Sequence record: MZ436830.1
Direction: 5' to 3' (one strand)
Source of the DNA: Escherichia phage JK1
Length of the DNA: 64,000 bases
Shown: piece after piece, positions 15,853-33,037 of the stretch
Layout of the letters: each line of letters begins with the position of its first letter
Position numbering within the stretch: the stretch's first letter is position 1
Notes under the pieces: generated by a model
The model's database searches: none
What the model saw: only the letters and a program-made list of their open reading frames with translations
What the model was told of the DNA's origin: nothing
Position numbers and translations under genes: made by a program

Positions 15853-15856
15853 CAAT

Positions 15857-15886
15857 GGGGACCTTTCGGTCCCCATATTTTTATTT
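15857..15886 (+). terminator. Intrinsic terminator after gene 54
   Basis: GGGGACCUUUCGGUCCCC hairpin followed by AUAUUUUUAUUU. Confidence 0.7.
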
Positions 15887-16171
15887 ACGGAATGAAATGA
15901 AAGCAGAAACTGAAGCAACTAAACTGTCTTCAATATAAACTTCAATTTTTACCGGAGCTTCTGACTCGAATTTACCTGTTACTACACCTTGGAAAATACT
16001 TTCAGTTTGTTCTGGCTTTGAAAAATTTTCAGAAGGAAAAATTCCGAACTTTTTATCTGTTCCAAAAATTTTGATAAATTCATCATAAACTGCTTCATTA
16101 AAAGCATTATCAGCAGGAATAACGCCTTCAACTACAAGTTCTTGACCCAAAAAGCGCAAAGAAGATTTCAT
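15881..16171 (-). CDS. Hypothetical protein (96 aa)
   Basis: ORF with GAGGAA RBS, early-type promoter at 16203-16232. Confidence 0.6.
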   Translation of the reverse strand: MKSSLRFLGQELVVEGVIPADNAFNEAVYDEFIKIFGTDKKFGIFPSENFSKPEQTESIFQGVVTGKFESEAPVKIEVYIEDSLVASVSAFISFRK

Positions 16172-16202
16172 TTTGTGTTCCTCATGTTATGTCAGTAAGA
16201 CT

Positions 16203-16232
16203 ACTATAACACAACACGAGGGACTTGTAAAC
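16203..16232 (-). promoter_or_regulatory. Early promoter (GTTTAC-N18-TATAGT)
   Basis: -35 GTTTAC (16227-16232) and -10 TATAGT (16203-16208) on - strand; part of a 52-bp repeat. Confidence 0.5.
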
Positions 16233-18289
16233 TACATCTTGAACTTTTTAGACATTCCGTTGATGTTAACCAAAGAAGCCAAGATTTGAGAAACTTCGTT
16301 TTCCTCTTCTTTTGATTCTTCTACAAGGAATTGATTAAATCCAGCCATTGGACGAACTTCACCAGTTTCCATTAAATGGTCGCCATCATATACTGATTCT
16401 TCTAATTGTTCAGAAGGAGGAACGATTGTACCTTCTATTAGATACTTGTTATAAGCAGTTTCTTTCATAAAGTACGTGCTCACTTTATTAATCTTCAGTA
16501 AAATTCCACGCGGTAGAATAACTTCAGCTTCTGATGGAAATCCTGATAAATGACCTGGAACGATAACTTTGATTCGCTCAGCTCCTTTAATTACCATACC
16601 CACGCTAGTTTCAGCATCTTCATTAGCATATGTAGAATGACTACCCATATGCATCAAATCTTCTGCATCAACGGAACCTTCTCCTTCACCAGAAAATACT
16701 GCGCCGGAATCATCTAGAGCCATATAGTTTTTACCATGCTCACCGAAGATATTTGGTTTAAGCGATGTGGATACGAAGTTCTTGAAATAGAACATTTTAT
16801 TTTCAATGTTATGACGCAAAGTTTTAAAGGTAACTTCTTGCCCACGATAAAGAGTAGTTCCTGGAGGAAGAACAGAACCTTTAGCAAATGCAGAATCCAA
16901 CGTCTCGATGTGTTTAATAGCTCGTTCCATATATTCTTCACGGGTAGAATCAGGTTTACCTAAAAGGAACGAGTTCATTTCAACATATGAATCTGCACAA
17001 TAATCTTCAATTACATCAGATTCAGCTTGGGTTAATCCTTTTGGAGTTACTTCGGTGCTTGCGTATTCATATGCCTGAGCAGCAGATTCATTAATCAATT
17101 TATAAATGCCATTCATTACAAATTGAATAATAGCTGTCTTTTCATCTGGCGTAGCTTTAGAACCTTTAACCAAATCATTGATAATTTTCTTAATAACATC
17201 AAAGCTATTAGAAATATTAATGTCAGCAAGATCGCTTAAAATTTTATCAGTTTTATAATCAAAGAATTCTTTATTCTTTAAATATTCTTGAGAACCTTGA
17301 TATGTTATATCGCTCTGCAACTTGATGGATGGATCACGTAAACGTGCATGGGCTAATGCAATATGATTTCGGAAACTTTCTAGTTCATAATCGTTAGATT
17401 TAAAACGAGAAGCACTCCTCATACCACCGATAGCTCCTTTGCTGAAGTTTGAACCAATCTGAATAACGCCAGAGTTCATTGGTCCTTCTGCTTTATATAC
17501 CGGAACTTTAGATTCAAACTCTTGATATTTCTTAGCAGCGAAGCTATCACCCTGAAGTGAAGCATCAACAGTAGAATATTGAGCTTGTGCTGCTAATCGA
17601 CGACTAATTTTAGTTTTCTGAATAACAGCTTGATCCGTGCGCTTATCATTTTCTAAAGCAATAGAAGCAGCGACAGCGACAGCTTTAGGAACAGCATTAC
17701 CTGTTTTAACGTCTACATAAACATCACCAACCTTTGATTCAACTTTTGTGAATAACTCAGTTGAAATAGGAGGTACACCTGGAATGTCTTCTAAATTGGC
17801 ATTTTTACGGTAAACCATAATATATGCATATTTCTTATCATAGTCCCAGATTTCCTTTAAAAGAACATATCGACCTGCTCCTTTAGTACGTACTAAACGG
17901 TCAGCAATAACTTGCATTTGACGAGCTGCGCCATTTGTTTTACTTTTTAGTACGCGGAATAGGCATGCGTCGATTTTATACTGTTTCATTGTTTGAAGAG
18001 CAGTATCAAAAACAGCATTAATGACGCCAATTGGATTTCCACCCAAGTTTCTAAGCTTGACTAACGATAATTTCTCGTTGACACCTATCATTACGATATG
18101 CATCATTTTGTCGCCTGGCTTAACGTTTTTATTCGTATCACCGCCAGAGGTGTATGTACAAAATCTAAATCCAGGAAGAACGCTTTCTTCACCGGCTTGA
18201 ATAGCAAAAATTTGTGGTATTTTATGCTTAGGATTTAAGTTAACAACCGGCGCCGAAGCGCCGTCAAATAATTCTGTAATAAGTTCCAT
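16232..18289 (-). CDS. alt: Alt-family ADP-ribosyltransferase (685 aa)
   Basis: R-S-E ART signature in C-terminal half (LYRGQ ... FVSTSL ... EAEVILPRG); N-terminal MELITE peptide; synteny next to gene 54. Confidence 0.8.
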   Translation of the reverse strand: MELITELFDGASAPVVNLNPKHKIPQIFAIQAGEESVLPGFRFCTYTSGGDTNKNVKPGDKMMHIVMIGVNEKLSLVKLRNLGGNPIGVINAVFDTALQTMKQYKIDACLFRVLKSKTNGAARQMQVIADRLVRTKGAGRYVLLKEIWDYDKKYAYIMVYRKNANLEDIPGVPPISTELFTKVESKVGDVYVDVKTGNAVPKAVAVAASIALENDKRTDQAVIQKTKISRRLAAQAQYSTVDASLQGDSFAAKKYQEFESKVPVYKAEGPMNSGVIQIGSNFSKGAIGGMRSASRFKSNDYELESFRNHIALAHARLRDPSIKLQSDITYQGSQEYLKNKEFFDYKTDKILSDLADINISNSFDVIKKIINDLVKGSKATPDEKTAIIQFVMNGIYKLINESAAQAYEYASTEVTPKGLTQAESDVIEDYCADSYVEMNSFLLGKPDSTREEYMERAIKHIETLDSAFAKGSVLPPGTTLYRGQEVTFKTLRHNIENKMFYFKNFVSTSLKPNIFGEHGKNYMALDDSGAVFSGEGEGSVDAEDLMHMGSHSTYANEDAETSVGMVIKGAERIKVIVPGHLSGFPSEAEVILPRGILLKINKVSTYFMKETAYNKYLIEGTIVPPSEQLEESVYDGDHLMETGEVRPMAGFNQFLVEESKEEENEVSQILASLVNINGMSKKFKM

Positions 18290-18292
18290 GAT

Positions 18293-20386
18293 TTATCCTT
18301 GAACGAACTTGTAAGGCATGTTTGTAATATCTATGCAAGACGCAATAATTCCAAGAGATGATTCTACTTTCTGTTTAACGTTTGATGAAACAAATGATGC
18401 AAAGTCAACTTTGTCTTCTATTTCAATATCACCTGTCATTGCAACTACTTCGCCGGTTTCCATTAGATGGTCACCGTCATAAATTACCGATTCGGTGAGT
18501 TCTTCTGTGGTCATAACTTCAGCTTGAATAAGTTTTGTATTATTAGATGTTGTTCCGTCATTATTAGAAGCATCAGTTATTTTATTAACTTTAACCATCA
18601 ATCCGCGCGGTAGAATAACTTCAGCTTCTGTTGCTATTCCTAGACTTCCTGGATATACAACATTAACTTTATGTGCGCCGTCAATTGCCCATCCTATTTG
18701 AACTTTAACGTATTCAGGATTTTCTTTATACGCTCTTATTTCGTTTGGATTAATAGTTATTCCTTCTTCATTTTTATCAACTGTTAATTCATTGCGAGCT
18801 TCTGGTTCTAAAAGACCAATACCAGCATGTGTAATTCCAAAACGTCCAAAAATGATAGGAGTTAAAGAAGTAGATACAAAATTTCTGAAGTAGAACACTT
18901 TATTTTTAACTAACGCTTCATATATAGGAGCAGTCATACTTTGAGCACGATAAACTGTAATGCCTTCTGGTATACGGTCACCATTTTCAAAAGCTGAATC
19001 TAAGTTATTTATAGCAGATTCAATTTCTTTTTCACTCATTACATCATATCGTTCTGGATTGTAACGACCTAAAAGAAGATTATTGATGTCAGTATATCCT
19101 GAACCGCAATATTCTCTAATGCCACGCTTTTGTGATGGAGTATATTTAGAACCATCGCGGGCAATAGTAATATCAATCATTGGACCAGCACCAATTCCAG
19201 AAAAACTGTAAATCATTCGTTTGAGGAATTTAGTTTTTGCTGCGTTCCAGGAATTTTTAGTTATTTCTTCCCAGACTTCATCTGGTTGTCCTTTACGATT
19301 TTTATTATGATTAGCAAGCCATTTATCTTTATAATCTTCAAAGAATTGATTTACAGCTGCTGCGTATTTCTCTAAACATTTTATTGAAGTAGTTGGTTCA
19401 TTTTTAATTGCATTAAAAATTACTTCTTTAATTTTTTCTGAAACTTCACCGACTTGACTCATTGGAAAGAATTTATAATCATAGTGAAGTTCATCTGCCG
19501 TTCCTTCAGCAATAATTTTTGCTGCCTTTGTTTTAGAAGCTAATGAATTAATTCCAATTTTCATTTCTTCTGCTTCGGGAATTAAAGGTGCAGTAGCTGG
19601 TTTATTAAAATTAGCTGCTGTAGATTCATACTTCTGGAATAATTCACTTTCAAATCTAGAAGATTCCAATGACTGACTTTGTGCAATTGCTCTACGGGAA
19701 ATTTTAACTTTAACGATTACAGCTTGGTCAGAACGTTTATCGTTTTCTTGCGCAATAGATGCTGCAATTGCCTCATTTTTAGTTACTTGGGCTCCAGTAT
19801 CTTTATTGATATAAACATCACCAACCTTCGATTCAACCTTAGTAAAGAGTTCAGTACTAATTTCTGGAACTCCTGGAATGTCTTCTAGTGATACGTTTTT
19901 ACGATGTATAAGAATATATGCATACTTTTTATCGTAATCCCAGAGTTCCTTAAGAAGGACGTATCTGCCACCTGAACGACTACGGATAAGTCTATCAGCA
20001 ATAACTTGAATTTGTCGAGCTTGACCAGCGGTTTTAGACTTAAGAATACGAAGCATACAAGCATCAATTTTATATTGACGCATTGTTTGCATTGCAACAG
20101 TAAAAACTGAATTGATATAATTAATTGGGCTTGGACCAAGACCTTTCAATTTAGCAATTGAACCTTTAGCAGTTAATGTAAAAGGAACAATATGCATCAT
20201 TTTGTCGCCCATTTTTAAATCACGATTAGTATCACCTCCAGATGTATAGGTACATAAACGAAAGCCTGGTTGTTCAATTGCATCATCAACATGAACTGAA
20301 AAAATTTGTGGTATTTTCTTCTTTGGATTTAAGTTTGTAATCGGAAGAGTAGTATCTTCGTCAAATAATTCTGTAATGAGTTCCAT
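18293..20386 (-). CDS. Second Alt-family ADP-ribosyltransferase paralog (697 aa)
   Basis: Paralog of adjacent ORF: same N-terminal ~230 aa and same ART triad (VYRAQ ... FVSTSL ... EAEVILPRG); late promoter at 20410-20417. Confidence 0.8.
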   Translation of the reverse strand: MELITELFDEDTTLPITNLNPKKKIPQIFSVHVDDAIEQPGFRLCTYTSGGDTNRDLKMGDKMMHIVPFTLTAKGSIAKLKGLGPSPINYINSVFTVAMQTMRQYKIDACMLRILKSKTAGQARQIQVIADRLIRSRSGGRYVLLKELWDYDKKYAYILIHRKNVSLEDIPGVPEISTELFTKVESKVGDVYINKDTGAQVTKNEAIAASIAQENDKRSDQAVIVKVKISRRAIAQSQSLESSRFESELFQKYESTAANFNKPATAPLIPEAEEMKIGINSLASKTKAAKIIAEGTADELHYDYKFFPMSQVGEVSEKIKEVIFNAIKNEPTTSIKCLEKYAAAVNQFFEDYKDKWLANHNKNRKGQPDEVWEEITKNSWNAAKTKFLKRMIYSFSGIGAGPMIDITIARDGSKYTPSQKRGIREYCGSGYTDINNLLLGRYNPERYDVMSEKEIESAINNLDSAFENGDRIPEGITVYRAQSMTAPIYEALVKNKVFYFRNFVSTSLTPIIFGRFGITHAGIGLLEPEARNELTVDKNEEGITINPNEIRAYKENPEYVKVQIGWAIDGAHKVNVVYPGSLGIATEAEVILPRGLMVKVNKITDASNNDGTTSNNTKLIQAEVMTTEELTESVIYDGDHLMETGEVVAMTGDIEIEDKVDFASFVSSNVKQKVESSLGIIASCIDITNMPYKFVQG

Positions 20387-20409
20387 CATATCCTCTCTAG
20401 TGTTTATTC

Positions 20410-20417
20410 TATTTATA
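20410..20417 (-). promoter_or_regulatory. Late promoter for the upstream Alt-family gene
   Basis: TATAAATA on - strand ~20 nt upstream of ATG 20386/20389. Confidence 0.6.
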
Positions 20418-24368: not shown

Positions 24369-24734
24369 TTAAATATCAAATTCATTAAGAACTACATCAA
24401 AGATTGCTTCGAGATGTTCAGGTTTAGCTCTGTTACTCAGAATATGACGAATCCAAGTTTTAACCAAAAGCTTGCGATTAGCACCATTCCAACAAGGATG
24501 AGTCCCTAAATCGCGTTGACGGAAATCATCATCCAGAGCGATTTTAAAGTTGGAACCTTCCATTGTGATTGAAACCGTGATGCCATTTTCAAATCGCATA
24601 TAAACGTAATTAGGAGTCATATACTGTTCAATTTCGCATACTGATCCATTTTGATGTTTCCAAAGGCAGATAGTATCAATAGAACCTGCAATACCATTAG
24701 AAACATATTTACGTTCAAAGTTGATGTAGTTCAT
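24369..24734 (-). CDS. Hypothetical protein (121 aa)
   Basis: Start moved to ATG 24734 with GGAG RBS (ORF-track start is TTG). Confidence 0.6.
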   Translation of the reverse strand: MNYINFERKYVSNGIAGSIDTICLWKHQNGSVCEIEQYMTPNYVYMRFENGITVSITMEGSNFKIALDDDFRQRDLGTHPCWNGANRKLLVKTWIRHILSNRAKPEHLEAIFDVVLNEFDI

Positions 24735-24770
24735 TTTATTCTCCAAGATGTTTAATTGCGGTACAGGTAT

Positions 24771-24799
24771 ATAATATCATATCCTGTACCAAAGTAAAC
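24771..24799 (-). promoter_or_regulatory. Early promoter (GTTTAC-N17-TATTAT) inside inverted repeat
   Basis: -35 at 24794-24799, -10 at 24771-24776; flanked by GGTACAGG/CCTGTACC inverted repeat. Confidence 0.45.
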
Positions 24800-27828: not shown

Positions 27829-28061
27829 AGTACGCCATACACCCTTTGTGCTTCAACTAATCCATCAAAATCCAGTTTAAGATGCGATATTTGATCGCCA
27901 TCACCTGGATTCACAATTACTAATACTGAACGAGGAGTTTCGGTAATAACACGAACCGATGTTTCAGGAAATCGTTCAGAAACCTTATTTACCAATTCCT
28001 GTGCAAATAGTTTAACTTTTTCTTGGAATTCTTTAACAGTAATTGGTTTTTCACTTAGCAT
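27825..28061 (-). CDS. Hypothetical protein (78 aa)
   Basis: ORF, GAGGAA RBS, early promoter upstream. Confidence 0.6.
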   Translation of the reverse strand: MLSEKPITVKEFQEKVKLFAQELVNKVSERFPETSVRVITETPRSVLVIVNPGDGDQISHLKLDFDGLVEAQRVYGVL

Positions 28062-28091
28062 TTTGTTTTCCTCATTTGTTTTGGTAGAGCT

Positions 28092-28121
28092 ATAATATCA
28101 CAACTCTACCGTAAAGTAAAC
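28092..28121 (-). promoter_or_regulatory. Early promoter (GTTTAC-N18-TATTAT) inside inverted repeat
   Basis: -35 28116-28121, -10 28092-28097; GGTAGAG/CTCTACC inverted repeat around -10. Confidence 0.45.
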
Positions 28122-30541: not shown

Positions 30542-30891
30542 TTAGAAAGGTCCTGGATGTCTTCTGCGAACTTGTTGAAGGAGTTGTTGATTTGTTTTTC
30601 AACCAATCCTGGCTTATGAGCCACCACATCCGCCTTCTTTGCGTCTTTGCGCAGTTTTTCATTTTCACGCTCAATAGCAGCAATTGCCTCACGATTTTTA
30701 TTATTCATCGCATCAATATAATTATACTGAATTCGCAAATTATTTAATGCTAAGGCGTTTTCATTGGCCGTTTTTGTAATTTCAGTAACCGATGTTTCTA
30801 ATCTTTCTACCTTATTTTTTAAAATAATAGATGTTCCGCCAAATACTATTACAAGTAATAGCAAACCTGCTGTCGTATTACTTAATTGCAT
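30538..30891 (-). CDS. pseT.3: Inner-membrane coiled-coil protein, i-spanin candidate
   Basis: 117 aa; N-terminal TM helix LLLLVIVFGG then coiled-coil-like periplasmic region. Confidence 0.7.
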   Translation of the reverse strand: MQLSNTTAGLLLLVIVFGGTSIILKNKVERLETSVTEITKTANENALALNNLRIQYNYIDAMNNKNREAIAAIERENEKLRKDAKKADVVAHKPGLVEKQINNSFNKFAEDIQDLSK

Positions 30892-31388
30892 AAAGTTTTA
30901 ATAACCTCTATAATATCGTCTTGAGAAAGACCGTTAATTAAAATATGATGTTCCGCCGGAGATTTAGAAATTTTAAAGCATGCCGCAACATCTTCTGCCA
31001 TATCCGATGCGCTACGATTTGGATTACTAATTCCAAGACGATGTTTTCCCGTTAAAGGATTAACGATGATATAGCATTTACAGCTATTGATATGAACATT
31101 AGGTTGAGTCTGATTAATGAACACTTCACAATCATACTTAGCGAGTTGATTTTCTAAAAAGACTTTCATCTCTTCAACCGCATCAGGAAGCATATCACGG
31201 GCTTGCTCAAGACGACGATTTCGATATTCTTTAATGGTCGTTTTCCGCTTGACTTGCTTAGCTAAATCTTTCTTAAGATCGGTGATATATCCAACTCGAC
31301 GATTTCCTTTAAATACAGAAATCCCATCTGTAGTATCACCGTATGCTTCAACGACCATTTCAGTAGTAATAAGCTGCAAATCCATCAT
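30882..31388 (-). CDS. alc: Alc (inhibitor of host transcription on cytosine DNA)
   Basis: 167-168 aa; synteny between spanins and rnlA; early promoter upstream. Confidence 0.75.
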   Translation of the reverse strand: MMDLQLITTEMVVEAYGDTTDGISVFKGNRRVGYITDLKKDLAKQVKRKTTIKEYRNRRLEQARDMLPDAVEEMKVFLENQLAKYDCEVFINQTQPNVHINSCKCYIIVNPLTGKHRLGISNPNRSASDMAEDVAACFKISKSPAEHHILINGLSQDDIIEVIKTLCN

Positions 31389-31416
31389 AAAGTCCTCATG
31401 CTATGTCAGTAAGATT

Positions 31417-31446
31417 ACTATAACACAACACGAGGGACTTGTAAAC
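31417..31446 (-). promoter_or_regulatory. Early promoter upstream of alc (copy of 52-bp repeat)
   Basis: GTTTAC (31441-31446) -N18- TATAGT (31417-31422). Confidence 0.5.
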
Positions 31447-31449
31447 AGC

Positions 31450-33037
<1,588 letters not shown>

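Follow-up and report, generated by a model that had tools for sequence, protein, structure and literature searches.

The 54-bp sequence found upstream of both alc and alt.-3 in Escherichia phage JK1 is probably, though far from certainly, an early-only expression cassette, with an early promoter embedded in it, a Shine-Dalgarno sequence (SD) that would be masked on RNA reading through from upstream, and an alt.-3 copy derived from the one at alc; the repeat, its promoter motifs, the hairpin with its covariation, the direction of copying and the early expression in T4 are borne out by the data, and it is the transcription start, the translational block and the mechanism of conversion between the copies that we infer. 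The window that we analyzed, i.e., the whole stretch of 64,000 nucleotides of phage DNA (sequence record MZ436830.1), is a Tequatrovirus (T4-like) segment with early genes on the - strand. A preliminary description of this DNA had drawn attention to the two near-identical promoter-leader copies but overlooked their main feature, a conserved hairpin of 14 bp (plus 4 bp) in which the promoter spacer is paired with the SD.

The repeat and its promoter

The 52-mers at positions 16181-16232 and 31395-31446 differ by two mismatches. Beyond these two places, the window contains no match to the 52-mer at up to three mismatches, and none was found in 100 dinucleotide-preserving shuffles, so the repeat reported at two distant early gene starts is borne out and has no third copy here. 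When the - strand is read, the identity extends two bases further into GAGGA, which makes the repeat 54 bp long, still with two mismatches (52 of 54 positions in common). Both copies are on the - strand and are direct repeats separated by about 15 kb: copy 1 (16179..16232) is located upstream of alt.-3 (T4 equivalent, L001 5041-5094) and copy 2 (31393..31446) upstream of alc (T4 equivalent, L001 18284-18337). The flanks are unrelated on both sides. Upstream, copy 1 adjoins the end of an Alt paralogue and copy 2 the end of rnlA; downstream, the sequences are ...ACACAAAATGAAA and ...CTTTATGATGG. The repeat is therefore not the edge of a longer duplicated coding block, a possibility that the preliminary description had raised against its own proposal. 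The comparison with related phages that it had called for places the element at the same two genes in T4, where the copies differ by one base, and in about 500 Tequatrovirus genomes: blastn found the element in 576 phage records, with at least 80% query coverage in 498, and nearly all of the ~498 Tequatrovirus records have the cassette at two places per genome.

The promoter scan agrees with the earlier reading of the - strand as GTTTAC-N18-TATAGT followed by a GAGGA SD that serves both downstream genes; it scores both copies as TTTACA-17-TATAGT with 10 of 12 matches and TG present. The -35 element GTTTAC is at 16227..16232 in copy 1, where the TAG stop codon of the upstream Alt paralogue ends on its G, and at 31441..31446 in copy 2, while the -10 element TATAGT, preceded by TG (extended -10), is at 16203..16208 and 31417..31422, respectively, all on the - strand. 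Both copies have the -35 element, the 17-18 nt spacing and the TGn-extended -10 TAnnnT of a T4 early sigma-70-type promoter. Where an A/T-rich UP element would be expected, an A/T-rich run is present ~20-45 nt upstream in the alc copy, and the sequence upstream of the alt.-3 copy is coding. The usual distance of 7 nt from the -10 leads to the A of UUACUG, and from this promoter geometry the transcription start is predicted at 16196 in copy 1 and at 31410 in copy 2 (- strand). The other early-promoter-like sites of the window have only the -35 and -10 motifs in common with this pair and nothing of its spacer or leader. The overlap of the upstream TAG stop with the -35 G (window positions 16229-16234) has its like at many alc loci (…GAGTAGTTTAC…), and such a compact stop/-35 junction brings the terminating ribosome near the anti-SD arm of the hairpin described below.

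A motif search detected no late promoter TATAAATA in either cassette, and no Rfam covariance model matched a region overlapping either of them at E <= 1. The terminator scan called no intrinsic terminator in either cassette, in which no U-tract follows the stem, and an intrinsic terminator was rejected as a reading of the element for want of such a call. A RegB site was likewise rejected because the SD is GAGGA and not GGAG.

The genes served and the timing of their expression

Copy 1 serves a homologue of alt.-3 (T4 annotation) that encodes 96 aa (15881..16171, - strand), and copy 2 serves alc, the gene of the inhibitor of host transcription (30882..31388, - strand). A second Alt-like ADP-ribosyltransferase ORF (16232..18289, - strand) enters copy 1, and rnlA, which encodes RNA ligase 1 (31450..32610, - strand), ends 3 nt before copy 2. 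The terminator scan found no terminator between either of these upstream ORFs and its cassette; since the Alt-like ORF runs into copy 1 without a terminator, it is a source of read-through RNA. The late-promoter consensus TATAAATA is present at 20410..20417 (- strand), just before the first alt ORF (18293..20389), and late transcripts initiated there would run on into alt.-3. The alt/alt.-3 transcription unit is closed by a bidirectional terminator-like hairpin (15855..15876; 9 bp, 6 GC), which sits between alt.-3 on the - strand and gene 54 on the + strand.

In T4, omics data place alc and alt.-3 in the early class at the level of RNA as well as of protein, alt.-1 and alt.-2 among the middle genes and alt among the late genes (PMC9697503). 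The early expression of T4 alt.-3 behind middle and late genes is indirect in vivo evidence for an early promoter of its own at that place. The window encodes two full-length alt paralogues of 685 and 698 aa (16232-20389, - strand), whereas in T4 a single alt gene is accompanied by the fragments alt.-1 and alt.-2; for this reason the T4 cassette overlaps the end of the alt.-2 remnant. C-terminal extension mutations of Alt.-3 let T4 escape the CmdTAC defence (PMC11618068), which means that the gene behind copy 1 has counter-defence potential.

Pairing of the promoter spacer with the Shine-Dalgarno sequence

The spacer sequence CCUCGUGUUGUGUU (element positions 12-25) pairs with the leader sequence GACAUAACAUGAGG (positions 40-53), the SD included, and an extra inner stem of 4 bp is formed around the -10, which is located in the hairpin loop. 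In copy 1, the 5' arm CCUCGUGUUGUGUU occupies 16208..16221, within the promoter spacer, and carries the anti-SD CCUC; the 3' arm GACAUAACAUGAGG occupies 16180..16193 and contains the SD GAGG of alt.-3. In copy 2, folding and arm pairing place the 5' arm at 31422..31435 and the 3' arm GACAUAGCAUGAGG, which contains the SD of alc, at 31394..31407 (all on the - strand). The minimum free energies of the two hairpins are -23.3 and -27.3 kcal/mol (z = -3.9 and -4.3), and no shuffle folded as well as either of them.

Through this pairing the SD is predicted to be buried on read-through RNA. By promoter geometry, in contrast, transcription from the cassette should start in the hairpin loop, 3 nt before the 3' arm, and thus a promoter-initiated transcript should be devoid of the 5' arm. 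In partition-function folding, the predicted probability that the SD is unpaired is 0.001 and 0.008 on read-through RNA versus 0.38 and 0.71 on promoter-initiated RNA, and the predicted energy of SD opening is 18.3 and 16.5 kcal/mol versus 1.9 and 4.5 kcal/mol.

The preliminary description had noticed in the leader a mini-ORF of 4-5 codons whose stop overlaps the main start. It is indeed present in both copies (MRNTK* and MRTL*), but it is not conserved: 3 of 12 lineages lack it, and in the others it encodes peptides in two frames, with lengths from 3 to over 10 codons. Its AUG adjoins the SD and belongs to the 3' arm, and that its stop overlaps the main start is a result of the frame and the A after the AUG. 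Lacking an SD of its own, missing from these three lineages and variable in frame and length, the mini-ORF was rejected as a functional unit and is treated as incidental.

Covariation of the hairpin arms at alc

The alc loci of T4-like phages were taken from GenBank and IMG/VR. The same layout, GTTTAC followed by a 5' arm, the -10, a loop and a 3' arm with the SD, was found upstream of alc in many genera, including Gelderlandvirus, Karamvirus, Dhakavirus, several groups of Klebsiella phages and others. The SD-masking architecture recurs before alc in at least 11 T4-like lineages, with arms that are different yet complementary: the pairs AUCUCCGUUUAGUU/AACUAAACGGAGAU, AUCCUCAUCAG/CUGAUGAGGAU, AACCUCUCAUUUU/AAAAUGAGAGGUU and CCUCGUUUGUU/AACAAACGAGG, for example, are unrelated between lineages. 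The 3' arm includes the SD in all 11 lineages compared. The spacer-leader duplex of these lineages has a mean energy of -21.0 kcal/mol in cognate combinations versus -11.0 kcal/mol in the 110 non-cognate ones, and the cognate arm is the best partner in both directions in 10 of the 11 (permutation p < 1e-5).

RNAalifold applied to a plain MAFFT alignment of 20 full cassettes returned no consensus pairs, because the register of the helix shifts by 3 nt between lineages. The pair counts therefore come from a structure-derived alignment of 9 pairs that takes the SD end of the helix as its anchor, and stand next to the cognate and non-cognate duplex energies. In this structure-anchored alignment, 98% of the cells are paired, versus 74% with shuffled and ~50% with slid partners, two-sided (compensatory) changes are found in 7 of the 9 pairs, and the covariation score is 0.757 versus 0.275, with none of 500 shuffles attaining 0.757. 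Pairing is also retained on the shorter evolutionary scale. Within Tequatrovirus, all six types of substitution in the 14-bp stem seen among 10 genomes keep the pairs: G16A (GU to AU), C13U and C15U (CG to UG), G40A (UG to UA), U44C (GU to GC) and A46G (UA to UG). This within-genus sample was built from GenBank records; a scan of IMG/VR with the 5' half of the element gave only 7 stretches.

These data bear on the simplest explanation of the repeat, that it is a plain duplicated promoter in which the complementarity of spacer and leader has no function and the identity of the copies is due to the constraint on promoter and SD together with gene conversion. T4-type early promoter cassettes are 67-79% similar already at baseline, and signs of conversion are indeed seen between the two copies. 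However, promoter spacers are otherwise free to vary, and here the arms covary across lineages whose sequences are wholly different, while the within-genus substitutions in the stem all preserve pairing; we regard a functionless complementarity as very unlikely. We find it hardly probable at all that the element acts at the level of DNA, as a protein-binding palindrome, a cruciform or a recombination hotspot that drives the shuffling of cassettes, even though the cassette has clearly moved between genes and Arbiol et al. speculated that the stems of PeSL cassettes might be targets of a recombination protein. Three G-U pairs of the T4 version of the stem can be formed on the sense strand only, which points to RNA rather than to a DNA palindrome: they are C-A mismatches on the other strand and G-T mismatches in DNA. 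The substitutions, moreover, swap G-U and Watson-Crick pairs, as expected of a sense-strand RNA.

Not all alc loci have the structure. Mosigvirus and two other groups have merely a small hairpin inside the spacer at alc, the stem stops just 5' of the SD at L028/L045 and L035, and the Gaprivervirus locus contains a terminator together with a partial duplicate of alc. The existence of alc genes without SD sequestration in Mosigvirus, L028/L045, L035 and Gaprivervirus implies that the gating is dispensable or replaceable. The short hairpin that lies wholly within the -35/-10 spacer is a second conserved structure, with a loop of the AAGGA/AUGGA type and covarying arms (CCAC/GUGG, ACACC/GGUGU, AACC/GGUU). 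It was found at L052-L057 (~440-470), L006 (1447-1475), L034, L047 and L049, before alt.-3 in six genera and before alc in Mosigvirus, and some of its loops contain GGAU, a secondary RegB motif.

A proposed early-only mode of expression

Each copy of the repeat could act as a self-contained early expression cassette, in which a strong sigma-70-type promoter has a spacer complementary to the leader and the SD. RNA that comes from upstream, i.e., from rnlA into alc and from the late alt genes into alt.-3, would fold into the 14-bp and 4-bp stems and bury the SD, so that the downstream gene would be poorly translated from it. RNA initiated at the embedded promoter would start in the loop, lack the 5' arm and leave the SD free. 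In this way, alc and alt.-3 would be translated essentially only from their own early transcripts; by analogy with the T4 hairpins discussed at the end of this text, we think it likely that their translation is confined to such promoter-proximal transcripts.

The position of the upstream stop codon, ~9-14 nt from the base of the stem, makes translational coupling a serious alternative to silencing. In the case of coupling, the translation of alc or alt.-3 would depend on a ribosome completing the upstream ORF: on terminating there, it would melt the base of the helix, where the anti-SD is paired with the SD, and there would be no silencing. This fits the position of the stop, which in the alt.-3 copy and many alc lineages (…GAGTAGTTTAC…) overlaps or abuts the -35, at ~9-14 nt from the first paired base. 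It fits less well with the distance of ~60 nt from the stop to the start and with the alc copy of the window, where the stop is 14-15 nt from the stem, outside the reach of the ribosome. A coupling model also leaves the embedded promoter without a role, and the T4 precedents of the same geometry show ~100-fold repression (PMC3014915). We consider coupling unlikely, albeit an explanation to be reckoned with.

Two further early-promoter-like sites of the window (28050-28121 and 24730-24799, - strand) have inverted repeats across the -10, GGTAGAG...CTCTACC and GGTACAGG...CCTGTACC, with z = -3.1 and -3.8 versus shuffled leaders; their 3' arms are located right at the predicted start, and the SD is not covered. 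T4 early promoters may be placed in hairpins quite generally, and this design may have more than one function. Another reading of the alc and alt.-3 hairpin is a role in RNA processing, stability or insulation, in which it would protect 3' ends on read-through RNA, be an RNase III-type site or, as a weak terminator, insulate the early promoter, as has been proposed for PeSL stem-loops. In line with this would be the repeats just described, which leave the SD untouched, and the T4-like PeSL cassettes, which join early promoters with terminating stem-loops (PMC2839356, PMC4122927). For the alc and alt.-3 copies such a role is quite improbable in our opinion, given that no U-tract is present, that the terminator scan was empty in both cassettes, and that the 3' arm includes the SD in all 11 lineages, which would be needless for a mere stability hairpin.

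Origin of the alt.-3 copy and recombination between the copies

Homologues of alt.-3 are found behind alt in Gaprivervirus, Dhakavirus, a Mosigvirus-like phage, Marfavirus, Karamvirus and Kanagawavirus. In all six, alt.-3 has an early promoter of a different type, with a short covarying hairpin in the spacer and a leader ending in ...CAUGAGGA... The presence of this other promoter type in six genera indicates that the SD-masking type is ancestral at alc and that the Tequatrovirus alt.-3 cassette is a replacement copied from the alc type. The suggestion of the preliminary description that the promoter was copied by recombination thus finds support. The 54-bp identity begins at GTTTAC and stops at AUGAGGA; as both motifs were already common to the donor and the ancestral recipient, the crossovers by which the copy would have replaced the original alt.-3 promoter likely took place at GTTTAC and ATGAGGA. 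Such an exchange within conserved motifs has been proposed for PeSL cassettes (PMC2839356, PMC4122927).

Since the replacement, selection on promoter and structure may have maintained the likeness of the copies, together with occasional gene conversion. The distance from copy to copy amounts to 1.9 differences within a genome versus 2.74 between genomes (permutation p = 0.002, n = 10, phylogeny ignored), and orthologous copies of different genomes have 2.1 and 3.0 differences, i.e., are about as alike as the copies within a genome. The substitution G16A is present in both copies of three genomes, and phage G28 has three identical copies of a variant cassette. For these 10 genomes, with phylogeny ignored, the data suggest that gene conversion between the copies happens occasionally, and it is the sole sign of recombination from copy to copy. 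The preliminary description had also envisaged the copies as a substrate for deletion or inversion. Inversion is excluded because the copies are direct repeats, and deletion is argued against by what would be lost with the DNA between the copies, i.e., alc through alt, with genes 30, 31 and ~30 others. Genes 30 (DNA ligase) and 31 (co-chaperonin) are essential in T4 by established genetics.

The third copy in G28 was formed by a 351-bp tandem duplication, the junction of which, with AAGCG microhomology, is in coding sequence outside of the cassette; the duplication (L058 4148-4556) comprises the 3' end of rnlA, the cassette and the 5' end of alc. Partial duplicates of the alc N-terminus just upstream of alc are present in two unrelated phages, G28 and VR25 (L004 1260-1493). 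In Mosigvirus SHSML-52-1 (L008 2500-2561), the part of the T4 alt.-3 version from the -10 to the AUG (TATAGTAGTCCTACTGAAACATGAGGAACACAAAATG) precedes an unrelated ORF of 66 aa that adjoins ndd; the spacer there is different, and the hairpin CAGUAGGA/UCCUACUG is not over the SD. A swap of cassettes between alc and alt.-3 in Mosigvirus was considered too and was dropped because the identity of 78% is within the baseline of 67-79% for unrelated early cassettes.

Significance

T4 is the reference system for temporal gene control. To our knowledge, translational gating by a promoter placed in a hairpin is textbook material only for late genes, and a strongly covarying early version upstream of alc, the gene of host-transcription shut-off, would be a second and opposite use of the same design. 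If the proposed mechanism is true, a gene located downstream of middle or late genes can be made translatable only from its own immediate-early transcript, and the location of early-only genes behind alt or other late genes would thereby be explained. Transplantation of a regulatory cassette followed by concerted evolution would have a dated example in the alc/alt.-3 pair, which is also relevant to the rewiring of accessory and counter-defence gene expression in T4-like phages. We suggest tentatively, and would not be surprised to be wrong, that early promoters in SD-masking hairpins are a distinct class of portable early-only cassettes, which can be transplanted at their -35 and SD motifs and whose paralogues evolve in concert. 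An early-promoter spacer that masks the SD and is conserved through covariation upstream of alc, in combination with the transplantation of such a cassette to alt.-3, is not described in the two Virology Journal reviews on T4 and the two PeSL papers, to which the comparison was confined.

Comparison with known systems

Repeated early-promoter cassettes and the masking of an SD by a hairpin that contains a promoter are both known in T4-like phages. The T4 genes e, soc, 49 and I-TevI have an SD that is sequestered when the RNA is early or middle read-through, and an internal late promoter gives rise to translatable transcripts; the repression of e by the SD hairpin is ~100-fold (PMC3014915). The cassette described here resembles those of e, soc, 49 and I-TevI (also mobE and segB) in that the SD is predicted to be in a helix on long transcripts and the 5' strand to be lacking from transcripts of the internal promoter, and in that the structure is kept among relatives. 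It differs from them in that their promoter is a late one (TATAAATA) and the gating late-only, whereas the promoter here is of the early sigma-70 type and early-only gating is predicted; moreover, the 5' arm is the -35/-10 spacer itself. As the embedded promoter is early and not late, the predicted logic is opposite to that of e, soc, 49 and I-TevI. Neither alc nor alt.-3 is among the cases covered in that review (PMC3014915), where the word 'alc' occurs 0 times.

The PeSL cassettes (Arbiol 2010; Comeau 2014) are similar in being short, near-identical repeated units of early promoter, SD and ATG in phages of the T4/PST group, but their stem-loop is a terminator located upstream of the -35, whereas the stem described here spans the -10, includes the SD and is not followed by a U-tract. 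There are two copies here, 15 kb apart, and since they flank essential genes, the excision of a mini-circle is not viable. PeSL cassettes are associated with gene insertion, deletion or replacement between close relatives; here, the cassette replaced the alt.-3 promoter in Tequatrovirus, its -10/leader part is found at the unrelated Mosigvirus ORF, and the junction in G28 is outside the cassette. The genes alc and alt.-3 are not named in the two PeSL papers. With T4 early promoters in general (UP element, -35 GTTTAC, TGn and -10), the cassette shares GTTTAC, the 17-18-nt spacing, the TG-extended -10 and the early class of the downstream genes. The ordinary T4 early promoters of the window have only the hexamers in common with it, whereas the spacer of the alc/alt.-3 pair is under an RNA-structure constraint.
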